Shown here in pieces: positions 3,012-57,376 of a stretch of 64,000 bases of DNA. Under the pieces are notes generated by a model. It saw nothing but the letters and a program-made list of their open reading frames with translations. It was not told the DNA's origin and searched no databases. Made by a program: the position numbers and the translations under genes. The first letter of the stretch is position 1; each line of letters begins with the position of its first letter. The stretch is from positions 1 to 64,000 of IMG/VR virus record IMGVR_UViG_3300029451_000002. The stretch is one strand, 5' to 3'. The stretch is from a virus.

Positions 3012-3268
3012 TGAAAATAGAACCAAGTGAGTTCTTGCCGATAGGTAATGAGTTTCAGAAAATCTTTGGAATAAGCTTTGGAAAATTCATAGATATGCGG
3101 TTTCTTTTAGCGAGAAAAGAGTTAGTCTTCAATCTGCTGAAGTTCACAGATTGGCTTGAAGAGTGCTATCCGGATGAGTGTTCCATTGATGGAGTGAGTT
3201 ACAATGCGGTTGTCGAGCGAAAATTTGGCAAGCGAGGGGTTAAAATGATAAAGAAACTATTGCAATGA
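3011..3268 (+). CDS. hypothetical protein
   Basis: ATG overlaps the upstream stop. Confidence 0.45.
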   Translation: MKIEPSEFLPIGNEFQKIFGISFGKFIDMRFLLARKELVFNLLKFTDWLEECYPDECSIDGVSYNAVVERKFGKRGVKMIKKLLQ

Positions 3269-3987
3269 AGTATATGGGTAGCAAGGCTAGAATCGTGCAT
3301 GAAATATTGCCGATTATGCTTGATAAAGAACATGATACGTTTGTAGATGCTTTCTGTGGTGGCTGTAGCGTTATTGAGAACGTTCCGGACACGTATCGAA
3401 GGATTGCCAACGATAAGAATAGGTATCTTATCGAAATGTGGAAGTTTCAGAATGATGGGTTTGTCTTCAACCATATTAGTAAGACGTTGTATAACTTTGC
3501 AAGAGACTGCTATCACGGAAAGAATAAATTCTTCACAGAAGCAGGTGTCGGACTAATTGGCTTTATGGCGAGCTTTAATGGACGTTTCTTTGATGGTGGC
3601 TATAGCGGACATAATGTTGTCGGCAAGAACGGAAAGGCAAGAGATTACATAAGGGAGCAGATAGAAAATACAATGTGTGATGTGCCTCTTCTCAAAGGTG
3701 TCGAGTTTTATAGCGGCAGTTATGATGAACTTGTGATACCGGATAGGAGTATAGTGTATTGCGATTTGCCTTACAAAGCTACGAAAAAGTATGATGTATC
3801 AAAGAATTTCGATTACGAAAGATTCTATATATGGTGCATGGAAATGGCTAGAAGAGGTCATAAGGTATTTATCAGCGAGTATCAGATGCCCCAAGAGTTC
3901 AGATGTGTTTGGGAAAAGGAAGTAACAAACTCTCTTAACCCGAATATAACAAAGAGACCAGTCGAAAGGTTGTTTACAATTGATTAG
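3265..3987 (+). CDS. dam: DNA N6-adenine methyltransferase, D12/Dam class
   Basis: N-terminal MGSKARIV (the Y-GSK SAM motif) and the DLPY catalytic motif in VYCDLPYKAT. Confidence 0.8.
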   Translation: MKYMGSKARIVHEILPIMLDKEHDTFVDAFCGGCSVIENVPDTYRRIANDKNRYLIEMWKFQNDGFVFNHISKTLYNFARDCYHGKNKFFTEAGVGLIGFMASFNGRFFDGGYSGHNVVGKNGKARDYIREQIENTMCDVPLLKGVEFYSGSYDELVIPDRSIVYCDLPYKATKKYDVSKNFDYERFYIWCMEMARRGHKVFISEYQMPQEFRCVWEKEVTNSLNPNITKRPVERLFTID

Positions 3988-3996
3988 AAAGAAGAA

Positions 3997-4155
3997 ATGA
4001 AAGAAACTTATTGCTTGGAAGATACGCTTTACAATACAAAGCGTTACTTCACGTTTGAAAATGGCGTAGTATCAGGAACAGAAGTTGCACAGGAATACTT
4101 TAATATTTTTCTTGATCTTGCAAGTCGGCTTGGCTATAAGGTAGTGAAATTATGA
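3997..4155 (+). CDS. small hypothetical protein (52 aa)
   Basis: ATG ORF not in the supplied track (<60 aa); read by eye. Confidence 0.25.
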   Translation: MKETYCLEDTLYNTKRYFTFENGVVSGTEVAQEYFNIFLDLASRLGYKVVKL

Positions 4156-4313
4156 AAAGGCGGGTAAACAAGGATTGTCCGTTCTCGGCAGAAGAATTGG
4201 ATGAGTTCAGAGCAGCCTTATATAATGTGAATACATCTTTTCACTGCTGTAATGCAGCTCCGGTAGACTGGGCGGCAGGATGGCAGCGGAATGATATAAG
4301 AAAGACGAGGTAG
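4152..4313 (+). CDS. small hypothetical protein (53 aa, Cys-containing)
   Basis: ATG overlaps the upstream stop; read by eye. Confidence 0.25.
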   Translation: MKRRVNKDCPFSAEELDEFRAALYNVNTSFHCCNAAPVDWAAGWQRNDIRKTR

Positions 4314-4324
4314 GAAAGCCATAA

Positions 4325-4755
4325 TCTACCAAATACCCACGTGCCAAAGCCGTGTGATGCCTTGCGTGGGGGCATGATGATAAACTAGGAGTCGCACGGC
4401 TTTATTTGAATGTTTCATAACTACAAATAGCCTATCGCTAATGGTTGTTCCCTTGGGCAGGGAGATAGTTAATACCGCATCGTAAGATGTGAACACTTAA
4501 AATTTGCCGACAACCATTGGCAAATGCCTATTAGTCAGCGGCAGAAACCCTTGGGCAAGGTTGGGAATGGTGCACAATCTTCAAATTCGCATCTGTCGCT
4601 GACAAACGGATGAGTGGCATTGGCAACTGAAAGCAATGCGACCCTCGCAAACTTGGAGCGGATTTTCTGATTAAACATTCCGTGTACCAGGTCACTGGGG
4701 AGGTGTTGACACCAACAAGGGTTTAAATCCCTTGTCATCCACTAATTTTAAAAGG
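4325..4755 (+). ncRNA. Candidate structured non-coding RNA (GC-rich island, long-range complementarity)
   Basis: About 430 nt with no ORF on the sense strand; markedly higher GC than the flanks; hairpin cccacg...cgtggg; 9-bp pairing aaagccgtg/cacggcttt; aatggttgt/acaaccatt; repeated cccttgggca; terminal hairpin caaggg-tttaaat-cccttg. Confidence 0.35.
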
Positions 4756-4762
4756 TAAAATC

Positions 4763-4990
4763 ATGAATGAGTATTGTAAGAATTTGATTTCAAATGGTGT
4801 TCCTAGCTGGATAGTAGAGGAGGCTTATAAATTTACAATTGAGCCTTTGAAATCAACAGAAGGCTTGGTAGGAATTGATAAGGAAAATAGTGAGCTATAT
4901 AGAAATGTCATTATCGCAGCCTACATTGAGGGTGCTAGTGCTACATTGTTAAAAGTGCAAAGATATTATGGCGGTGAGGAACATAGTTAG
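4763..4990 (+). CDS. hypothetical protein
   Basis: ATG ORF. Confidence 0.45.
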   Translation: MNEYCKNLISNGVPSWIVEEAYKFTIEPLKSTEGLVGIDKENSELYRNVIIAAYIEGASATLLKVQRYYGGEEHS

Positions 4991-5207: not shown

Positions 5208-5479
5208 TTATGGACTTAGAATTGTTGATTGATAAGATAGACTTTAGTCAAGGTGCAAGGCAGGTAGCCAAGCAAGCCTTGGAGTTGGGAATGAAATATC
5301 AAAAAGAAGGTGCTTGGCATTCTGTTGAAGAGCTGCCTGAGTATAACAGACGCATTGTCGGTCTGACCAAGGTTCGCAAGCGTTTCAAGCATCTGAATTT
5401 CTTAGGCGAGGAATGGTGGAATAGGTTCACGAAATCAAACGCCATCTATAAATGGGCTTATGTGGACGATTTAGTTTGA
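5204..5479 (+). CDS. hypothetical protein
   Basis: ATG overlaps the upstream stop. Confidence 0.45.
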   Translation: MIMDLELLIDKIDFSQGARQVAKQALELGMKYQKEGAWHSVEELPEYNRRIVGLTKVRKRFKHLNFLGEEWWNRFTKSNAIYKWAYVDDLV

Positions 5480-5524
5480 TAGTAATCGTAGAAATCCATA
5501 ATGCTATTTTGTTTTAAATGTTTG

Positions 5525-5566
5525 CCCCATCACTATATATAATAATGTAGTGGTGGGGATTTTTGT
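5525..5566 (+). terminator. Rho-independent terminator (hairpin ccccatcacta/tagtggtgggg plus T-run)
   Basis: An 11-bp stem followed by ATTTTTGTGTT; identical copy at 48357-48397. Confidence 0.65.
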
Positions 5567-5639
5567 GTTAACGTCAGTAAATTATTGGTGTTATGTGTTA
5601 TGATATATTAAAGAATAAAAGAAACACATTAAAAAGTTT

Positions 5640-5718
5640 GCATATTTCAGATATTCTTTGTATCTTTGCAATGTAATTAAGAAACAAGGTTACTAATTTT
5701 AAAAAGGTGAGACACACC
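5640..5718 (+). promoter_or_regulatory. Promoter (TATCTTTG at 5661-5668) plus conserved leader motif (5706-5718)
   Basis: Near-identical to the cassettes at 455-538, 26270-26347 and 48470-48549. Confidence 0.6.
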
Positions 5719-5738
5719 ATAAAAACTGTAAGAAGAAA

Positions 5739-5999
5739 GTGGAAAAGAATAATGTTTATGTAGAGGTGTTGGCAAAGATTGCCAGCCTCATGGGTAGAAC
5801 AAAGGAGTCTATCCAGATGTCGTCTTCAAATACTCATACGAGTATTACGATGTTTGCTGAAAATAATAGCAAGATTATTGGAAATTGGTATTTTGATGCT
5901 TCCGATAGCAAGGAGTTGGTGGATGCTACTTTCAATGGTCTGAAGGCTTTGGTTGAGTCTCTTGAGCACAATAAGAGCAATGACGGACAAGCAGCGTAA
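5739..5999 (+). CDS. hypothetical protein
   Basis: First ORF after the cassette (GTG start in the track). Confidence 0.4.
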   Translation: MEKNNVYVEVLAKIASLMGRTKESIQMSSSNTHTSITMFAENNSKIIGNWYFDASDSKELVDATFNGLKALVESLEHNKSNDGQAA

Positions 6000-6228
6000 G
6001 TACATAGAAACTCTTATCAAGAAAGTGTTTCGTAATGCAGATTCGCAGAGCGAAATACTTTCCAGATTGGATAGGGTTAAGATTTCAAGCCATCAAGCTT
6101 CAGTAATGATACATGCATTGAAGTTAGAGTGCAACATCGGTCGCTCCGTTCCGGCATATATGTTAATGGCAAACAATCTAAATCCAAAAATGGATGAGTT
6201 CTTTAGTATATTAGGGTACGATGAATGA
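5953..6228 (+). CDS. hypothetical protein
   Basis: Operon ORF. Confidence 0.4.
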   Translation: MSLLSTIRAMTDKQRKYIETLIKKVFRNADSQSEILSRLDRVKISSHQASVMIHALKLECNIGRSVPAYMLMANNLNPKMDEFFSILGYDE

Positions 6229-6257
6229 CGTATTCTTCAAGAAGAAAAGAAGTTGAT

Positions 6258-6533
6258 ATGAAAAAGGTAATAATGATAATAGCCGTTGCCGCCATTTTGG
6301 TAGGTTGCAAAGGTAAGGGTACAAGAGTCCAAATCTCGGATTCTGTTGACAAATTCAATGTCGAGAAATTGTTTGTTGTTGATAGTATAACAGTGTACAG
6401 GTTTTATGACCAAGGAAATGCTATCTATTTCACTAACCGGAAAGGTAGGGTAGATGCAACCCATTCTGAGTACAATCCGGTTACTCATACATACAATGAC
6501 GAGGTTAACGAAACTTTATGTGAAGGAGACTAA
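6258..6533 (+). CDS. putative lipoprotein
   Basis: MKKVIMIIAVAAILVGCKG: signal peptide with lipobox LVGC; start taken at the internal Met of the track ORF 6225..6533. Confidence 0.5.
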   Translation: MKKVIMIIAVAAILVGCKGKGTRVQISDSVDKFNVEKLFVVDSITVYRFYDQGNAIYFTNRKGRVDATHSEYNPVTHTYNDEVNETLCEGD

Positions 6534-6536
6534 AAA

Positions 6537-6794
6537 ATGGAAAAGAGATTAACTAAGGAAGAGTTCCTTAAGGACTTATGGCATACTGCTAGCGAAAAGC
6601 CAAACATTAAGCAAGGAGAATGTTGCGTTACATGTTTGGTTAAGTTCAAAAACGGAAGTACGGAATTATGTGTATATTTCCGTAATCCAGAAGGATGGGT
6701 ATGTGATGATATGACTCCTAAAGATTTTAAAAGATATTTTAAGGGATGGCTCTATATTGATGATTTACTTCCAAAGGAAGTAGGTAATCAATGA
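6537..6794 (+). CDS. hypothetical protein
   Basis: ATG ORF. Confidence 0.45.
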   Translation: MEKRLTKEEFLKDLWHTASEKPNIKQGECCVTCLVKFKNGSTELCVYFRNPEGWVCDDMTPKDFKRYFKGWLYIDDLLPKEVGNQ

Positions 6795-26269: not shown

Positions 26270-26347
26270 GCATGTTTCAAATATTCTTTGTATCTTTGCA
26301 TCGTAATTAAGAAACAAGGTTACTAATTTTAAAAGGTGAGACACACC
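26270..26347 (+). promoter_or_regulatory. Promoter (TATCTTTG at 26291-26298) plus conserved leader motif (26335-26347)
   Basis: Cassette copy 3. Confidence 0.6.
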
Positions 26348-41263: not shown

Positions 41264-42370
41264 ATGTATAAAAACGAGCACAAGTTCCCTTATAGATGGA
41301 CTAAAAAAGATGCTAATTTCACAAAAGACAAAGGTAAGGTGATGTCTTGCTTTTGTTGTGGAGGTGGAAGTTCCTTTGGTTACAAACTAGCTGGCTACGA
41401 TGTTGTAGCCTGTAATGAGATAGACCCAAAGGTTATGAAGATGTACTTGAAGAATCACGATGTCAAGTATTCTTTCAATTGTGATATTCGTGAGTTGATT
41501 ACCAATATCAATATGGGGGGGCATATTATGAAAGAAGAGTTGCATAATTTGGATATATTGGATGCTAGTTTCCCATGTTCTGTATTCAGTATTGCAGGTG
41601 ACCGCCAAAAGGCTTGGGGAAAGGAAAAAGTATTCCGAGAAGGTCAGAAGGCGCAAAGGCTTGACGATTTGGCTTTCTACTCTATTGACCTTGCTAAAGA
41701 ACTAAAGCCAAAGGTGGTGGTTTTTGAGAATGTCCAAGGTTTGTTGCAAGGTGAAGCTATCGAGTACGTGAAAGAGATTTACAAGCAGATGGATAATGCC
41801 GGATATATCTTGCAGCATTGGTTGCTTAATGCACGTAATATGGGTGTTCCTCAGAATCGACCTAGGGTGTTCTTTCTAGGATTACGCAAAGACCTTTGCG
41901 AGCCGTTTATGGTTCAGAAGGATTTGTTCGAGCGAGTGCCTAAGATAGATATGGACTTCAACGAGAAAGAAATTGTCTTGGATGAGTTCTCGGACTATAA
42001 TGGAAGACAGATTCCTAAAGGAATGATGAAGTATTGGGAGTATAGAAACGAAAAGGACAATTCTATCGGTGATATTGTCAAGCGGATGGATAATCGTCTT
42101 TCTATGTTCAATAATATGTTTCTTAAAAAGAACAAGGTATGCAATACCATATCAGCAATGGAAGATAGACTTGTGTATTATGATAATCCAAGTTATCTTT
42201 CAGCACATGATACGATTTTAGCATCAACATTTCCGATGGATTATGACTTTAATGGCATGAAACCTTGGTTTGCTTGCGGAATGTGTGTTCCTCCTGTTAT
42301 GATGGCTAATGTAGCTACAAGAATCTGGGATTGTTGGTTATCAAAGATTAAAAAGGAGGAATGCGCATGA
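41264..42370 (+). CDS. DNA C5-cytosine methyltransferase
   Basis: Motif I FCCGGGSSFG, motif IV FPCSVFSIAG, motif VI VVFENVQGL, motif VIII QNRPRVFF. Confidence 0.85.
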   Translation: MYKNEHKFPYRWTKKDANFTKDKGKVMSCFCCGGGSSFGYKLAGYDVVACNEIDPKVMKMYLKNHDVKYSFNCDIRELITNINMGGHIMKEELHNLDILDASFPCSVFSIAGDRQKAWGKEKVFREGQKAQRLDDLAFYSIDLAKELKPKVVVFENVQGLLQGEAIEYVKEIYKQMDNAGYILQHWLLNARNMGVPQNRPRVFFLGLRKDLCEPFMVQKDLFERVPKIDMDFNEKEIVLDEFSDYNGRQIPKGMMKYWEYRNEKDNSIGDIVKRMDNRLSMFNNMFLKKNKVCNTISAMEDRLVYYDNPSYLSAHDTILASTFPMDYDFNGMKPWFACGMCVPPVMMANVATRIWDCWLSKIKKEECA

Positions 42371-43104
42371 TAACAGCAAGTATGACATCGGGAGAGATGC
42401 GTAGAGTACGAAACTTAGATGAAGCTAGAATCTATGAGTTTCAGATGCGAAAAGCTAATGAGCTTAAACGTGAAATGAGAAAGCAGAACGTAAGACAAAT
42501 AACAAAGACCTTTGAGCTTGCTACACCTAATGCCGATTATTTCATCGTTGTAGGTGTAAAACATGGCGATGTATTTGCTTCCGGTTTGTTCATTTATCTG
42601 AAGGAAACCAACGAGTATATTCCTATGAGTAGAAACGAGGGGTATAGCGAAGATTGTTTTGCTATGAGCGTTCATTTTCTGAAGAGATTTGCAGAAAGGT
42701 TTTTGAAAAAAGACTTACCGATTCTCAAGATATTGCAAAAGATATATACATCGTTTACAGGTGCTGTTCAGCTCTATAGTGATGACAAGACAAGAAGAGT
42801 GGTATTTGCTATTCCGGAAGGGCTTATACTCACAGAATACGAGCAAGAAAAGCATATCATCCATTACAAAACCTTTGTAAGCATGGATATGCTAAAGAAG
42901 ACACAGAAGCGAAGTTATGAGAAGATAAGTGCATTTCTCATGGAGTCTTGTCAGCAAATAGCTAAAGCAAGAGACACCGGAAATGACGAAAGGCTGTGCG
43001 TTGTGTACAGAAGGTTTTACAATGATATTGATTTGCTAGATACAAAGGAGGCGCAAGCCATATATTCAAGTTTCTTTGAAAAAGGAGGTAACAATGAAAG
43101 ATAA
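42361..43104 (+). CDS. hypothetical protein, start overlaps the C5-methyltransferase stop
   Basis: 10-nt overlap with the C5-methyltransferase stop; 247 aa; no recognised motif. Confidence 0.45.
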   Translation: MRMITASMTSGEMRRVRNLDEARIYEFQMRKANELKREMRKQNVRQITKTFELATPNADYFIVVGVKHGDVFASGLFIYLKETNEYIPMSRNEGYSEDCFAMSVHFLKRFAERFLKKDLPILKILQKIYTSFTGAVQLYSDDKTRRVVFAIPEGLILTEYEQEKHIIHYKTFVSMDMLKKTQKRSYEKISAFLMESCQQIAKARDTGNDERLCVVYRRFYNDIDLLDTKEAQAIYSSFFEKGGNNER

Positions 43105-43597
43105 ATGTATAACAAGGTTTCTTGGTGATATAAAGCCTATAAAGAATTACGAAAGGTATTATGTTAGCAAGCTGGGACATGTTTTTACTATTGGGAGAAC
43201 GTCTCAATTAAAGGAAATCGTACCTTGCAAGACACCAAAAGGTTATCTGAAGGTATGGCTTTACAAGAACGGAAAGCGCAAGATGTTTTATATCCATCGT
43301 TTGGTAGCTCAGGCTTTCTTGGAGAATCCAGAAGCGTTGCCGATGGTGAATCATAAGGATTTCGACAAGACGAATAACGATGTAGACAACTTGGAGTATT
43401 GCACCGCAAGATACAATGTGATTTATTCTGCTATAGCAAAGAAAACCTCTTCCGAATATTTGGGTGTGACTTGGAATAAGAGTGTAAGAAAATGGCAAGC
43501 GCAGTATCAGATAGGTAAAAAGAAAATATATATAGGTTGCTTTGATACGCAACAAGAGGCTCATGAAGCTTATGTTAACGCTATAAAAGAGATTTGA
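43094..43597 (+). CDS. HNH endonuclease with AP2 DNA-binding domain (homing-endonuclease-like)
   Basis: NHKDFDKTNNDVDNLEYCTARYN (HNH_3-like) plus EYLGVTWNKSVRKWQAQYQIGKKKIYIGCFDTQQEAHEAY (AP2 domain). Confidence 0.65.
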   Translation: MKDKCITRFLGDIKPIKNYERYYVSKLGHVFTIGRTSQLKEIVPCKTPKGYLKVWLYKNGKRKMFYIHRLVAQAFLENPEALPMVNHKDFDKTNNDVDNLEYCTARYNVIYSAIAKKTSSEYLGVTWNKSVRKWQAQYQIGKKKIYIGCFDTQQEAHEAYVNAIKEI

Positions 43598-43598
43598 T

Positions 43599-44312
43599 AT
43601 GCTTGAATTTGATAGAATATACAATTCCGACTGCATAGAAGGAATGAAACAAATAGAGAGCGGGAAAGTAGATTTAATTGTTACTGACCCACCATATTGT
43701 ATCTCCTATAAGACGGGACGGAGAGCAGACGGCCATCGTTTTTCGAAGGAAATACTCAATGACGATAATGAGCAATTGATTATTGATTATATGAGCGAAT
43801 GCTACCGGATTTTGAAGGATGATAGTGCTGCTTATATCTTCTGTAGTGCCAAGACCTTGGACTTTTTTATGCAACAAGCGAGGAACGCAGGGTTTACCAT
43901 TAAGAATGTGCTCATTTGGCGAAAGAACAACCATACGGCTGGAGATTTAGATGCGCAATATGGTCAATGTTACGAGCCAATCCTGTACTTGAATAAAGGC
44001 AGACGAATCATAAACGGCAAGCGTTTGGAGGACGTGTGGGACTTTGATAGAGTTCCATCAGATAAATTGGTACATCAGAACGAGAAGCCAATCCCCTTGC
44101 TAATGCAATGCATCTTGAAATCATCGAACGAAGGAGATTTGGTGTTTGATGGCTTTATGGGCAGCGCAAGTACTGCTCTGGCTTGTATGCGGACAAATCG
44201 GAATTACCTTGGTTTTGAATTGGATGAGGATTATTTCAAGGTGGCACAAAGAAGAATTAAGGAAGAATTGTTTAATCAAAAAGATATGTTTGGATATGCT
44301 GGAGTTAAATAG
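43599..44312 (+). CDS. DNA amino-methyltransferase (N6A/N4C, PF01555-like)
   Basis: DLIVTDPPY (motif IV) before FDGFMGSASTALAC (motif I). Confidence 0.8.
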   Translation: MLEFDRIYNSDCIEGMKQIESGKVDLIVTDPPYCISYKTGRRADGHRFSKEILNDDNEQLIIDYMSECYRILKDDSAAYIFCSAKTLDFFMQQARNAGFTIKNVLIWRKNNHTAGDLDAQYGQCYEPILYLNKGRRIINGKRLEDVWDFDRVPSDKLVHQNEKPIPLLMQCILKSSNEGDLVFDGFMGSASTALACMRTNRNYLGFELDEDYFKVAQRRIKEELFNQKDMFGYAGVK

Positions 44313-45012
44313 AATTTATCAAGGTGATTGTCGAAAGCTTTTAAAGCTGATTGATAGTGATAGCATAGACCTCGTATGTTCCGATGTGGCTTATCCGGTT
44401 CGGTCTAGGGGTGGCTCAGGGAGTATGGGAGGATATTGGACGGAATCTCAAACAAGAAAGGGCAAGATATTCAAGAGTAACGATATTGATATTTCGGACT
44501 ACATCAATGATTTGTACCGGATATTAAAGGACAGGTCGCATTGCTATCTGATGTGTAATGATTATAATTTAATGCACTTTCTTGATGTGGTAGGAAAGAG
44601 TGAGTTCCATTTTACCAAATGCTTAATATGGGATAAGTGCGCAAAAATATGTGGCCGCTATTATATGGCACAGAAAGAGTATATCATCATGCTACGCAAA
44701 GGTGGTGATAGACCGATAAATGAATGTGGTACATCTGACATTCTGAGTGTTCCTATTCCAACCAACAAGCGCAAGGATAAGGATGGTTTGATTAATCAGA
44801 CTGAAAAACCTGTAAAGTTGATGGAGATATTAATTAGAAACTCGACAAATGTTGGTGATGTTGTTCTAGACCCATTCATGGGGAGCGGTACAACGGCAAG
44901 AGCTTGCGTAAACCTTGAAAGAAAGTATATAGGCTTTGAAATAGACCAGCGTCAAGTAGATTTTGCTAATAACGAATTAAAGAATATGAGTAGGCAGTTA
45001 AGTCTGTTTTGA
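44296..45012 (+). CDS. DNA methyltransferase-like protein with degenerate catalytic motif
   Basis: SAM motif LDPFMGSGTTARAC present, but motif IV reads DLVCSDVAY instead of (D/N/S)PPY. Confidence 0.6.
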   Translation: MLELNRIYQGDCRKLLKLIDSDSIDLVCSDVAYPVRSRGGSGSMGGYWTESQTRKGKIFKSNDIDISDYINDLYRILKDRSHCYLMCNDYNLMHFLDVVGKSEFHFTKCLIWDKCAKICGRYYMAQKEYIIMLRKGGDRPINECGTSDILSVPIPTNKRKDKDGLINQTEKPVKLMEILIRNSTNVGDVVLDPFMGSGTTARACVNLERKYIGFEIDQRQVDFANNELKNMSRQLSLF

Positions 45013-45016
45013 AACT

Positions 45017-45241
45017 ATGGATATGTGCAAGGTGTTTTGTTGCAATCCTGTTGTAAGAAATGGGAATAAAGAAACAACGGATGCTCTTATAAGAGCTATG
45101 AGAGACGAAGCCTTAAAACGAGGGTTGGTACGTGATGAATTGATAGGTTTTTGCAACCGATTCTTGAGAGAAGGCGAAATCAAAGCTTGTATAGAGCATT
45201 TGCTAGATAATTTCAAACGTTATTTTTGGAGGTATCATTGA
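45017..45241 (+). CDS. hypothetical protein
   Basis: ATG ORF. Confidence 0.4.
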   Translation: MDMCKVFCCNPVVRNGNKETTDALIRAMRDEALKRGLVRDELIGFCNRFLREGEIKACIEHLLDNFKRYFWRYH

Positions 45242-45242
45242 T

Positions 45243-45872
45243 ATGAGAAGAAGAAAGTTGAACAAGTCTCCAGTGCTAGGCTTCTGCGGATTTGTTATCG
45301 GTTACGAATGCAAGGAAAAGGGAATAAAGCTGATGGAGTGCGATAAGGCGCAAGCAGATGCAATCATAGTTCCTCATCACTTTTCACACAAGGTAACGAA
45401 GAATAGTTGCTTGAATCTTTTGGTATTGTATAAGGATAAGATAAGGGGTGCAATGCAAATAGGGTATGGAATCCGACCTCACATCAAGACTGAAAAGGGC
45501 GAAGTGTTGGATTACCATCAAGTGAGGGAATTTGACAGAATGTGGTTGTCTGATGATATGCCAAAGTTTAGCGAGACGATTTGCCTATCTCTCTTGCATA
45601 AGTATATTAGGGCAACACATAAGGAAATCAAGTACCTTATATCTTATGCCGATACGTCCATAGGTAACAAGGGAACTATATATAAAGCTGCAAACTATGA
45701 GCATATTGATACCATTAAGGCAGATTTCTATGTGTTACCAAGTGGTGAGCGTGTGCATCCGGTTACGATGTGGCATCGGCACAAGACAAGAGCATGGGAG
45801 GTTCTAACGAAGCTATACCCAGGAATAAAAAAGGCAGAAGGGTTTCAACTTAAATTTCTGAAGAAGTTATGA
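45243..45872 (+). CDS. hypothetical protein within the methyltransferase island
   Basis: 209 aa; RGAMQIGYG resembles an acyl-CoA-binding GNAT motif. Confidence 0.4.
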   Translation: MRRRKLNKSPVLGFCGFVIGYECKEKGIKLMECDKAQADAIIVPHHFSHKVTKNSCLNLLVLYKDKIRGAMQIGYGIRPHIKTEKGEVLDYHQVREFDRMWLSDDMPKFSETICLSLLHKYIRATHKEIKYLISYADTSIGNKGTIYKAANYEHIDTIKADFYVLPSGERVHPVTMWHRHKTRAWEVLTKLYPGIKKAEGFQLKFLKKL

Positions 45873-46087
45873 AGAAAAGAAATAAATGTATTCCTCGTCA
45901 TTTGCATCCAGATCCTGAGCATTGGGTTAGAAAAGGTCAATCTTGGAAGGCGAAGGTAGCTTATGAAAGCGAGGATGATGCTTGGGAATTTCTGAATCAG
46001 AATCCGAAGTTACGGGCACAAGGTATGGCGGTGTATCGGTGTAGGATATGCAACAAATATCATATAGGGCACAAGAACAACAAATAA
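45869..46087 (+). CDS. small zinc-ribbon-like protein
   Basis: CRICNKYH plus His pairs. Confidence 0.35.
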   Translation: MKKRNKCIPRHLHPDPEHWVRKGQSWKAKVAYESEDDAWEFLNQNPKLRAQGMAVYRCRICNKYHIGHKNNK

Positions 46088-46102
46088 AAAATATAAACAG
46101 CA

Positions 46103-46384
46103 ATGATAGTAATAAAAATCAAAACATGGAAAGACTGGAAGAAGGACTTTCTTGATTGGGTGCAAGCACCTCGACGCAGAACTTGCAAGGATTATGTAGA
46201 CTATATGGAGGCTTTGCAAAATCGTGTTCTCTACAAAATAATAGCCGATACTTGCGATAAATACGACAATATGCGTGATGGGCAAATCCAAGAAATCACA
46301 GAAGCAGTCGAAAAATGCGTGGCTGAGTGTGCTAAAGAAGCACGCAAGTTAATCGATGAATGTCAGCCCGCAAAATTCTTCTAA
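46103..46384 (+). CDS. hypothetical protein
   Basis: ATG ORF. Confidence 0.4.
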   Translation: MIVIKIKTWKDWKKDFLDWVQAPRRRTCKDYVDYMEALQNRVLYKIIADTCDKYDNMRDGQIQEITEAVEKCVAECAKEARKLIDECQPAKFF

Positions 46385-46446
46385 GGCTGTAACTTTCATT
46401 ACACTGCCGTGAAATGGTTTAACTGATAGATTTAGAACAACAAAGT

Positions 46447-47220
46447 ATGATAGAGCTGAATAAGATATATAATGAGGATTGTCTAGTGGGAATGAAACAG
46501 ATTCCGGACGTAAGTGTGGATTGTATTATCTGCGATTTGCCTTATGGCGTTCTCAATAAAAAGAGTGAGGGCGGTGGCTGGGATAGCATTATTCCGTTTG
46601 AACCATTGTGGAAAGAATATCTGCGCATAACAAAACCTAATGCAGCGATTATTCTTTTCTGTCAAGGTATGTATACCGCACAGCTTATGATGTCGCAGCC
46701 GAAACTTTGGAAATATAATCTTATTTGGAGCAAGCAGCGGGTAACAGGCTTTTTGAATGCCAACAAGATGCCTCTGCGCTCGCATGAGGATATTGCCGTA
46801 TTCTATCGGAAACAACCTATCTACAATCCTCAGATGGTAAAATGTGCGCCACATCAAAGAAATCATCGAAGAGGCGACGGTTCTCATAGTTTGAAACGAG
46901 GTTGCTATGGCGATCATAAAGAAGTGCCTACTATCGTATCAGATGAGAAATTTCCAAAGAGCATTCTCTGCTTCGACAAGGAACATTCTGCCGACACTTT
47001 CCACCCCACTCAAAAGCCAGTCGCTCTTATTCAGTACCTCATCCGTACCTACTCCAACGAGGGCGACACCATCTTAGACAACTGCATGGGCAGCGGCACT
47101 ACCGCCATCGCCTGCATCAGAGAAAAGAGGAACTTCATCGGCTTTGAGATGAACAAAGAATATTACGACAAGGCTTGTAAGCGCATTAAGTTAGAAATGA
47201 TGCAACCAAGCCTATTCTAA
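46447..47220 (+). CDS. DNA amino-methyltransferase (N6A/N4C, PF01555-like)
   Basis: DCIICDLPYGV (motif IV) before LDNCMGSGTTAIAC (motif I). Confidence 0.8.
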   Translation: MIELNKIYNEDCLVGMKQIPDVSVDCIICDLPYGVLNKKSEGGGWDSIIPFEPLWKEYLRITKPNAAIILFCQGMYTAQLMMSQPKLWKYNLIWSKQRVTGFLNANKMPLRSHEDIAVFYRKQPIYNPQMVKCAPHQRNHRRGDGSHSLKRGCYGDHKEVPTIVSDEKFPKSILCFDKEHSADTFHPTQKPVALIQYLIRTYSNEGDTILDNCMGSGTTAIACIREKRNFIGFEMNKEYYDKACKRIKLEMMQPSLF

Positions 47221-56170: not shown

Positions 56171-57376
56171 ATGAATGAGTTTACAAAGATTTTCGCAAAG
56201 ACAATAGAAGATGAAGCTATCAAACAGATAGAAACCCTATCTAATAGCGAGGCTTACAATAGTTGTAAAATAAGAATAATGCCAGATTGCCATGCAGGTA
56301 AAGGATGCACTATTGGCACGGTAATAGAGCTTGATAACAGAGTAGTTCCTAACACTGTTGGAGTAGATATAGGCTGCGGCATGAAAGTCGTAAGACTTGG
56401 TAAAGTTGATATTGACTTGCAGAAATTTGATGAAGCAGTCAATAAGTTGATTCCGTCTGGTTTTAATGTCAACGAGGGAGAAGTATCAGCCTGCATAAAC
56501 GGATTGGTTGATGGTTGTATGTTTGGCAAATTCCGTGCTTGGGATTGTCTTGACAGCATGGAAATAGTATATCGTTCTGTTGGAAGTCTTGGCGGTGGCA
56601 ATCACTTTATTGAGTTAGATGCAAATGAAGAAGGAGAGAAGTTTCTTGTGATACATACAGGAAGTAGAAACCTTGGTGTTAGGGTATGCAACTATTACCA
56701 AAAACTTGCCTACGAGTATTGCCGTAAGAAAATAGCTGATAAGTCTGAGGTTATTGCCAAGCTAAAAAGCGAAGGCAGAGAAAATGAGATACAGAGTGTT
56801 ATTAAGTCATTAGGTACTAAAAATATAAGCAAGGAACTTTCTTACTTGGAAGGTGATTTGCTCAATGACTACCTCAATGATATGCGCATAGTTCAAAAAT
56901 ATGCTGAACGAAACAGAATGATTATCGCCAACAGACTTGTAAATGCTTTAGGTGTAGATATTGATGCTAATTCAGATAAGTATTCTTTTACAACCATTCA
57001 CAACTATATAGATACAGACAAGGGTATATTGCGAAAGGGAGCTATCAGTGCAAAAAAGGATGAGGTAGTCATTATCCCAATGAATATGCGTGATGGTTCT
57101 CTTATCTGCAAGGGAAAAGGTAACAAAGATTGGCTATGCTCTGCCCCTCATGGCGCAGGTAGATTAATGTCTCGTACACAGGCAAAGAAAGAGTTATCTA
57201 TGGATTCTTACAAGAATGAAATGAATGGTATTTATTCCACATCAGTTTGTGAAGAAACCATTGATGAAGCACCTATGGCATACAAGCCAACCGAAGAGAT
57301 TGTTGAGTTAATCAAACCTACGGTTGATGTCATTGATGTCATTAAGCCAATTTACAACTTCAAAGCAAAATTATAA
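56171..57376 (+). CDS. rtcB: RNA 3'-phosphate/5'-OH ligase RtcB
   Basis: MPDCHAGKGCTIG, GVDIGCGM, GGGNHFIELD, HNYID, APHGAGR: the full set of RtcB metal- and GTP-binding motifs. Confidence 0.85.
   Translation: MNEFTKIFAKTIEDEAIKQIETLSNSEAYNSCKIRIMPDCHAGKGCTIGTVIELDNRVVPNTVGVDIGCGMKVVRLGKVDIDLQKFDEAVNKLIPSGFNVNEGEVSACINGLVDGCMFGKFRAWDCLDSMEIVYRSVGSLGGGNHFIELDANEEGEKFLVIHTGSRNLGVRVCNYYQKLAYEYCRKKIADKSEVIAKLKSEGRENEIQSVIKSLGTKNISKELSYLEGDLLNDYLNDMRIVQKYAERNRMIIANRLVNALGVDIDANSDKYSFTTIHNYIDTDKGILRKGAISAKKDEVVIIPMNMRDGSLICKGKGNKDWLCSAPHGAGRLMSRTQAKKELSMDSYKNEMNGIYSTSVCEETIDEAPMAYKPTEEIVELIKPTVDVIDVIKPIYNFKAKL

Follow-up and report, generated by a model that had tools for sequence, protein, structure and literature searches.

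Among the closest described counterparts of the locus considered here are the large structured RNAs GOLLD and ROOL, which like it are phage-borne, free of open reading frames (ORFs), several hundred nucleotides (nt) long, multi-hairpin and conserved although their function is unknown. Orphan structured-RNA candidates from microbiomes and phages have been reported in their thousands (PMC8040213, PMC10690425). The locus is an ORF-free unit of ~403 nt, located at 4338-4740 on the + strand of a 64,000-nt stretch of a human-gut phage genome (positions 1 to 64,000 of IMG/VR record IMGVR_UViG_3300029451_000002, hereafter the window), between ORFs of 53 and 75 amino acids (aa). The preferred interpretation, to which a probability of roughly 45% is assigned, is that the unit is a functional, lineage-restricted, + strand non-coding structured RNA domain of an early transcript, with an accessory role as a scaffold or decoy. 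Compared with GOLLD and ROOL, the unit is smaller (~400 nt), matches no covariance model, lies away from the phage tRNA cluster (at ~32 kb), is confined to one lineage (at least 90% identity) and lies inside an operon, where it is not an obvious gene of its own. Its motif words are absent from the accessible supplements of two screens for structured RNAs (PMC10690425, PMC8040213).

IStrons are group I introns fused to an insertion sequence (IS) of the IS200/IS605 or IS607 type, and transpose as one piece (PMC4227781). A likeness to them appears in an alternative allele of the unit (allele B, described below), in which a co-oriented TnpB element of the IS200/IS605 family lies inside the structured non-coding region; however, IStrons occur in genes, have a group I core and move as intron and IS jointly, whereas the unit is intergenic, gives no group I signal and is accompanied by an IS that moves alone. 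Omega-RNAs (reRNAs) and PATEs, at 150-250 nt, resemble the unit as structured non-coding RNAs associated with TnpB elements, but the unit falls beyond the ends of the IS, does not resemble it, is single-copy and occurs in a window without TnpB. RNAs of the CsrB/RsmZ and 6S types are protein sponges or scaffolds with repeated hairpin motifs. A comparison from general knowledge finds in them, as in the unit, duplicated hairpins that show an identical internal-loop motif and unpaired regions that are conserved, but in the unit the module is present in just two copies, neither a promoter nor a terminator belongs to it, and it is not homologous to any family of that type. The RNase III sites of T7, put of HK022 and nut of lambda are cis-encoded structured RNAs on the gene strand of an early polycistronic transcript, as the unit would be; they span 30-80 nt, whereas the unit spans ~400 nt and lies 3.8 kb from the start of its operon, with no adjacent terminator context identified.

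A cmscan comparison of the window with the 4227 families of Rfam 15 returned only five tRNAs at gathering score. With permissive filters and E ≤ 10, applied to 751 nt of the region, only sub-threshold chance matches were obtained (DUF2815 at 19.9 bits against a gathering score of 41.2, mcrA and mir-232). An earlier reading of the window from sequence alone (the sequence-only reading) had likened the region to GOLLD, ROOL, HEARO and group I introns and had proposed a scan for introns, GOLLD, ROOL and riboswitches; the scan found nothing relevant, and GOLLD, ROOL, HEARO and the riboswitches were rejected for lack of any match to their covariance models.

The unit is non-coding. Each of the six frames contains 6-12 stops and all three stop codons, and stop-codon recoding was rejected on the ground that no single reassignment opens a frame. 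The one ORF that the sequence-only reading had noted, an antisense frame of 67 aa at 4535-4738, is present. Together with antisense ORFs of 56 and 54 aa and a + strand ORF of 32 aa, it was checked against 42 unique relatives: in all four the variable sites are distributed about equally by codon position, with no excess of third-position variation, and each is frameshifted or stopped in some relatives. No PHROG or Pfam match was found for these small ORFs, and the 67-aa peptide, the best preserved of them, retrieved only three clusters of its own family among 5.8 billion proteins. A protein-coding or decayed gene is ruled out by the stops, the lack of codon periodicity and the lack of translated homology; the alternative held open by the sequence-only reading, a degraded gene detectable by translated search, was looked for and not found. 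The region is also the GC-rich island it had been taken for, with a GC content of 0.459 against a window mean of 0.384 (sd 0.035), a value reached by 1.4% of 431-nt segments.

Diversity was analysed in 53 unique genomes aligned over 2.5 kb, in which seven flanking genes supplied the codon positions. Nucleotide diversity (pi) is 0.043 in the unit, compared with 0.08-0.18 at third codon positions and 0.02-0.07 at positions 1 and 2. Segregating sites make up 18% of the unit and 50% of third codon positions (Fisher p = 1.7e-26), and likewise 18% of codon positions 1 and 2. Four of the five longest invariant runs in the 2.5 kb lie inside the unit (27 nt at 4421, 27 nt at 4472, 26 nt at 4578 and 23 nt at 4643). 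Taken together, these figures are strong evidence that this non-coding sequence is functional and under purifying selection. As a conservation island it stands out from its neighbours only partly, since the neighbourhood is 85-99% identical among relatives.

Within the unit, on the strand of the genes, the following elements were delineated.

4338-4740, + strand: the whole conserved non-coding unit, with four hairpin domains.
4346-4403, + strand: hairpin A, a 16-pair helix (4346-4362 / 4387-4403); z = -2.75; three compatible variant types and one broken.
4430-4526, + strand: module M1 with hairpin B (helix 4437-4449 / 4509-4521); z = -3.83, matched by 0 of 200 shuffles.
4450-4462, + strand: internal motif of M1, CCCTTGGGCAGGG.
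4476-4491, + strand: invariant GUAA-capped hairpin of M1 (CGCAUC-GUAA-GAUGUG), with a GNRA loop.
4515-4523, + strand: 3' motif of M1, CATTGGCAA.
4527-4629, + strand: module M2 with hairpin C (helix 4534-4545 / 4592-4603), a paralog of M1; z = -3.79.
4548-4560, + strand: internal motif of M2, CCCTTGGGCAAGG.
4618-4626, + strand: 3' motif of M2, again CATTGGCAA.
4608-4740, + strand: 3' multi-helix domain; z = -3.71, matched by 0 of 200 shuffles.
4608-4612 / 4736-4740, + strand: closing helix GGATG/CATCC, invariant and hence uninformative.
4614-4642, + strand: hairpin D.
4643-4700, + strand: hairpin E.
4715-4735, + strand: hairpin F, which bears the only fully compensatory pair.

M1 and M2 are built alike: each starts with GCCUAU, has a stem of 12-13 bp with CCCUUGGGCA(G/A)GG just inside it, and ends with CAUUGGCAA. 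The pattern of the two motifs occurs exactly twice, in tandem, where no occurrence is expected by chance, and the alignment of M1 with M2 scores 57 compared with 38.7 +/- 6.4 for shuffled sequences, a score matched by 3 of 500 shuffles. The 27-nt invariant runs at 4421 and 4472 belong to M1, which is equally conserved in the IS-carrying allele, and the 13-bp helix of hairpin B accommodates six compatible variants and one that is broken. Hairpin A has a variable apex that is partly deleted in some relatives, and an apical deletion of 8 nt is tolerated in relatives L108 and L110. The complementarities and repeats listed in the sequence-only reading can all be located: CCCACG at 4336 is complementary to CGTGGG at 4365, AAAGCCGTG at 4346 to CACGGCTTT at 4395, and AATGGTTGT at 4440 to ACAACCATT at 4510; CCCTTGGGCA is duplicated at 4450 and 4548; and the terminal hairpin CAAGGG-TTTAAAT-CCCTTG occupies 4716-4734.

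The self-complementarity is above chance. On the + strand, the 449-nt intergenic stretch has a minimum free energy (MFE) of -142.6 kcal/mol (z = -3.48), significantly below the shuffled controls that the sequence-only reading had proposed, and only 1 of 100 dinucleotide shuffles is as low; the - strand of the same stretch has z = -2.21. When the four sub-domains (A, M1, M2 and the 3' domain) are folded singly, their z values are -2.75, -3.83, -3.79 and -3.71 on the + strand and -2.73, -1.54, -2.76 and -1.60 on the - strand. RNAalifold, given 33 unique sequences, proposed 106 pairs with 99.5% of cells paired and many alternations of G-C with G-U and of A-U with G-U, but this structure is fitted to the alignment itself and is therefore circular; non-circular tests were run on single-sequence folds. 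For helices of at least eight pairs, taken a priori from the single-sequence folds of the sub-domains, 15 variants preserve pairing and 9 break it on the + strand, compared with 4 and 17 on the - strand (Fisher p = 0.006). Among common variants (in at least three unique sequences) in the five a-priori long + strand helices, seven preserve pairing and two break it, and those that preserve it are mostly G-U-type changes, which are mismatches on the - strand. An illustrative hand tally of helices chosen after seeing the data (A, B, C, the inner part of E, and F) counted ten preserving variants and none that break, nine of the ten by way of G-U pairs that are C-A mismatches on the other strand. 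The sole fully compensatory pair, 4716/4734 in hairpin F, changes from C-G to G-C in 7 of 33 and 10 of 42 unique sequences. Hairpins A (4346-4403), B (4437-4521), C (4534-4603) and F (4715-4735) and parts of the 3' domain are credible as + strand RNA helices, while the global fold of the unit is not established; covariation support for the fold is only moderate because all homologs are at least 90% identical. The central proposal of the sequence-only reading, a candidate structured RNA outside any recognisable host gene, withstood the tests applied, in view of the non-coding character, stability, purifying selection and strand-specific, structure-compatible polymorphisms of the unit.

The functional unit is slightly narrower than the stretch 4325-4755 to which that proposal referred. 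Its neighbours on the + strand, the strand of all neighbouring genes, are as follows.

4152-4313, + strand: the 53-aa ORF, an upstream flank outside the unit, without a counterpart in L084-type relatives, which also lack the methyltransferase module.
4741-4762, + strand: A/U-rich unstructured tail with AAAGG, where translation of the 75-aa gene is initiated (ATG at 4763).
4763-4990, + strand: the 75-aa ORF, a downstream flank for a predicted three-helix protein, always directly 3' of the unit.

The left edge is placed at ~4337/4338 by relatives of the L084 type, which lack the methyltransferase, 52-aa and 53-aa genes and have another upstream gene (85 aa), whose stop codon is followed by AAATAC/CCACGTG (here and below, a slash marks a junction). 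The right edge is placed at ~4740, at the closing helix, where the A/U-rich ribosome-binding region of the 75-aa gene begins. Only one copy of the unit is present in the window and in every locus fetched. It lies ~3.8 kb into a rightward early operon that starts beside an XRE-type helix-turn-helix gene. No Bacteroidota-type -7 motif (TAnnTTTG) was found in the unit or just upstream of it, the nearest being at 3492 and 5661, and no U-tract terminator was found in or beside it. Judged by its sequence context, the unit would be transcribed as an internal part of a polycistronic early mRNA, and we infer that RNA rather than DNA is its active form.

According to the preferred interpretation, the early polycistronic + strand transcript would carry the unit as an internal segment, beginning with the apically variable hairpin A, continuing with the tandem ~100-nt modules M1 and M2 and ending with the multi-helix 3' domain and hairpin F. 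M1 and M2 would each present CCCUUGGGCA(G/A)GG and a 3' CAUUGGCAA, M1 being capped by the invariant GUAA tetraloop hairpin, and the duplicated modules would bind a protein or nucleic-acid partner for which the RNA is a scaffold or decoy. The role would be accessory (for example, host takeover or counter-defence) rather than part of core replication. A scaffold or decoy is favoured because loops and linkers are conserved, the motif is displayed twice and there is no co-evolution with the downstream gene; this specific mechanism through the duplicated modules is nevertheless tentative, and distinctly less probable than the interpretation as a whole. In about 40% of related phages, the central 163 nt would have given way to a TnpB transposon that entered at the foot of hairpin B.

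That replacement polymorphism is observed directly. Relatives with allele B keep the sequences corresponding to 4314-4522 (209 nt) and 4686-4761 (76 nt), and between them have an insert of 1276 nt that encodes a 378-aa TnpB with OrfB_IS605 and Cas12f1-like TNB domains. The positions concerned in the window are the following.

4517-4522, + strand: TTGGCA, directly 5' of the IS left end in allele B, a presumed target or target-adjacent motif (TAM)-like sequence at the foot of hairpin B.
4523-4685, + strand: the central 163 nt, replaced in allele B.
4686-4705, + strand: ACCAGGTCACTGGGGAGGTG, which abuts the IS right end in allele B and in the window forms the 3' strands of hairpin E helices.

An allele-neutral scan keyed on the 5' domain of the unit counted 68 contigs with the intact allele (A, 58%) and 50 with the IS (B, 42%). 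The junctions are identical in all IS-bearing alleles, which points to a single ancestral event and later spread by recombination. Copies of TnpB with 85-92% identity are found at several other positions in the same phage genomes, and because these copies share homology only over positions 5262-6537 of relative L005, the 1276 nt are an autonomous IS200/IS605-family element and the 5' and 3' parts of the window are its flanks, not IS ends. The right end is sharp (…GAGTATGTCAA/flank) and at the unit the junction reads …GAGTATGTCAA/ACCAGGTCACTGG; the left end starts with C(A/T)TTAATTA, its junctions at two independent sites being ...TTGGCA/C(T)TTAATTA and ...CTGCA/C(A)TTAATTA. The insertion point is 4 nt before the boundary of M1 and M2. 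No empty allele lacking both the 163 nt and the IS was found in IMG/VR, and 29 hits in JGI metagenomes were chance matches. Since the two alleles have nearly identical flanks, insertion with deletion from an allele-A ancestor would be more economical than insertion into a lost shorter allele. No relaxation of constraint is seen on the 5' domain in disrupted genomes, its pi being 0.041 in IS-bearing and 0.054 in intact genomes.

As side observations on this element, a related phage genome may contain as many as three TnpB-only IS, each at its own locus (contig 3300045988_108385 is an example, and L127-L159 are further sites in related phage contigs); the RuvC-like motifs of TnpB look intact (GIDFG, LEDLNLEG, HPRDLFAAEN), and some IS copies lack the left end. 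No Rfam model matches the omega-RNA region of the IS (~6340-6537 of L005). In one relative (L080 / L122), the sequence beyond the IS within the unit is not the usual 3' flank but another one (CATGTGAATGTGATTTTAGG…), and the 3' 76 nt of the unit are missing, which indicates a further rearrangement beside the IS.

Several results weigh against the preferred interpretation. All homologs are at least 90% identical and belong to one phage lineage, so that covariation has low power, and only one pair is fully compensatory. Across the whole single-sequence MFE structure, the + strand has 33 compatible and 33 broken variants (21 and 48 on the - strand); the preserving excess in the long + strand helices is not significant by itself (p = 0.31); and common variants contradict several predicted helices, among them the long-range one that would close over the Shine-Dalgarno region. 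Purifying selection alone cannot separate an RNA from a DNA-level element. No recognisable RNA-binding fold was found in the adjacent 75-aa protein, and no partner was identified. The unit is dispensable, because the TnpB IS has replaced its central 163 nt in about 40% of related phages, and an allele disrupted at such a frequency (42%) makes any function non-essential; the unrelaxed 5' domain of the disrupted genomes fits either a young insertion or an independent function of the parts.

Searches for more distant homologs found none. At blastn sensitivity, GenBank phages yielded one relative at 94%; loci keyed on the flanking methyltransferase and TnpB proteins proved to be close relatives without exception; and beside homologs of the 75-aa protein down to 67% identity the unit is still 93-98% identical. 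A degenerate pattern search for the GNRA hairpin found no stem variants, and a scan for the two-motif architecture with the known family excluded gave nine chance matches, in coding sequence.

Among the alternatives, the one that survives best, and which is still unlikely, is that the unit is a cis-regulatory leader or processing element. It would then act on the 75-aa gene and on later early genes through their translation, stability or RNase processing, and hairpin F and the A/U-rich tail would make up a regulated initiation region. The unit is directly 5' of the 75-aa gene in both genomic contexts and lacks a promoter or terminator of its own; the 3' 76 nt with hairpin F and the ribosome-binding site are kept in the IS allele, and it is hairpin F in which true covariation was found. 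However, a leader of ~400 nt would be very large, the unit matches no riboswitch, T-box or leader family, the helix predicted to sequester the Shine-Dalgarno region is the one contradicted by common variants, and in 42% of genomes a 1.3-kb IS parts most of the unit from the gene. Moreover, the 75-aa gene is a divergent mosaic patch whose alleles are 75-80% identical in nucleotides and 68-74% in amino acids, beside a unit that is 93-98% identical; the unit is independent of the gene and does not co-evolve with its product. The 73 homologs of the 75-aa protein are each ~75 aa, with no fused or longer forms. AlphaFold predicts a three-helix bundle (pLDDT 90.5) with no significant fold match in the PDB (best E = 3.5), a model that gives no support to an autoregulatory RNA-protein pair. 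Apart from this question, the 75-aa gene (4763-4990) is hyper-divergent within a neighbourhood that is 92-99% identical, and its two allelic forms appear to have been swapped through recombination, the breakpoint falling exactly where the unit ends.

Somewhat less probable is a DNA-level element, in which CCCTTGGGCA and CATTGGCAA would be protein sites on duplex DNA, or the hairpins would form in single-stranded DNA for priming or recombination, and the RNA fold would be incidental. Strong conservation does reach the loops and linkers, the repeated motifs are regularly spaced (98 and 103 nt), and IS200/IS605 elements enter single-stranded DNA beside hairpins, as one did at the foot of hairpin B. 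Against this, the polymorphisms fit the + strand fold and not the - strand fold (the p = 0.006 contrast above) and are largely of the G-U type, which is unexpected for a duplex-DNA site; each motif has only two copies; and neither an integrase nor a terminase is adjacent. A replication origin in particular was judged unlikely, as the O-like replication initiator and helicase are at 61-64 kb on the opposite strand, ~57 kb from the unit, and there is no inversion of GC skew here.

It is improbable that the unit is a relic of a mobile element, either a TnpB-less (MITE/PATE-like) derivative of IS200/IS605 or an orphan omega-RNA scaffold, with its conservation due simply to youth. The TnpB IS sits exactly where the central 163 nt would be in relatives, the 163 nt with the adjacent hairpin are of omega-RNA-like length, and there is no empty allele to show the ancestral state. 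Yet the IS copies elsewhere exclude the 5' 209 nt and 3' 76 nt, which are flanks, and local alignment of the 163 nt or of the whole unit with the IS yields no similarity above shuffled controls. Diversity is three-fold below that of neighbouring third codon positions in the same genomes, which argues for constraint and not youth. Assignment of the unit to an IS200/IS605 element or ORF-less derivative was rejected on these IS boundaries, the lack of IS similarity and the single copy; assignment to a TnpB omega-RNA was rejected because tblastn finds no TnpB in the window and because the omega-RNA region of allele B is inside the IS, not in the unit.

An ORF-less self-splicing intron (group I or IStron-like) or other ribozyme is very improbable and was rejected. 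The ~400-nt length, GNRA tetraloop, multi-helix layout and co-oriented IS in relatives give only a superficial likeness to an IStron, but neither at gathering score nor at E ≤ 10 does any covariance model of a group I or II intron or of a ribozyme match. Contrary to the intron analogy of the sequence-only reading, the flanking 53-aa and 75-aa ORFs are each a complete gene in itself (all 73 downstream homologs being unfused), and L084-type relatives have the stop codon of a different gene, of 85 aa, directly against the unit. An IStron moves as one piece, whereas this IS travels without the 5' and 3' parts of the unit.

The preferred interpretation, a scaffold or decoy RNA, may be combined with the biology of TnpB, in which the sequence abutting the IS right end serves as the omega-RNA guide. 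In allele B, that guide would be ACCAGGTCACTGGGG… (window 4686 onwards). An empty site, with TTGGCA followed by the guide match (…CCATTGGCA/ACCAGGTCACTGGGGAGG…), would be predicted to be cleaved by TnpB, whereas allele A would be immune, having no TAM-like motif before the guide sequence. The unit might thus be a ribonucleoprotein scaffold or decoy RNA that acts through its CCCUUGGGCA modules and, owing to its strong sequence constraint, also provides a "safe" homing site for a TnpB guided by ACCAGGTCACTGGGG... from the RNA gene itself, a combination about as doubtful as the DNA-level alternative. If true, it would explain the absence of an empty allele, and a TnpB homing site in a conserved RNA gene would be an analogue of the homing endonucleases that target conserved RNA genes.

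The window belongs to a tailed phage, as judged from genes for a tape-measure protein, a major head protein, an anti-repressor, an RtcB ligase and several DNA methyltransferases, and from its five tRNAs. The closest GenBank record is an unannotated phage scaffold from human faeces (94% identical), and the same lineage is represented in IMG/VR by hundreds of contigs. The sole match in genome collections is a contig binned with a metagenome-assembled genome of Segatella copri; by this binning, the host is probably a gut member of the Bacteroidota, Segatella/Prevotella copri.

Other features of the window were observed in passing. Upstream of the unit, the D12 methyltransferase, 52-aa and 53-aa genes (window 3265-4337) form an indel module that is absent from L084-type relatives; its junction lies inside a short direct repeat AAATAC (3268-3273 and 4332-4337) and reads …TTGAAATGAAATAC/CCACGTG…. 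In one relative (L168, 1481-3223), the D12 methyltransferase has 580 aa and a LAGLIDADG_3 domain, a sign that it may contain an intein or be fused to a homing endonuclease. The D12 methyltransferase at 3265 is additional to a dense DNA-modification block at 41264-47220, which contains four DNA methyltransferases (41264, 43599, 44146 and 46447) and a Mom-like protein (45243). The 16-mer TAATTTTAAAAGGTAA at 4741-4756, just 5' of the start of the 75-aa gene, is repeated exactly at 26322-26337 at the start of another gene, with 13-mers of it at 5692 and 48523, and may be a shared translation-initiation or regulatory motif. An AT-rich, ORF-free gap at 5480-5738 (GC ~0.26-0.29) contains, at 5637-5668, the only full match to a Bacteroidota-type promoter (TTTG…TAnnTTTG) within the first 9 kb, probably an internal promoter that starts the next transcription unit. 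ARAGORN reports one of the five clustered tRNAs, at 32260-32334, as tRNA-??? with a four-base anticodon (tggt); it scores 57 bits with the Rfam tRNA model. An enlarged anticodon loop is suggested, and this tRNA may be frameshift-suppressor-like or miscalled. The RtcB-type RNA ligase (56171-57376; PHROG 1075, E = 1e-131), together with the tRNA cluster at ~32 kb, suggests repair of host-cleaved tRNAs.

Segatella/Prevotella copri is a dominant gut bacterium in many human populations, its phages have hardly been studied, and very few structured RNAs have been described in phages of Bacteroidota. If the unit were only a processing or stability element, it would be a useful but ordinary annotation. 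A non-coding element of ~400 nt that is as constant as coding positions points to an RNA-level function in early infection that annotation pipelines have missed, and the TnpB replacement allele lifts it above a routine structured-RNA candidate. The natural polymorphism of 58% intact and 42% disrupted alleles is a ready-made comparison for the function of the unit, and a way to learn how RNA-guided transposons select sites in phage genomes and keep them.

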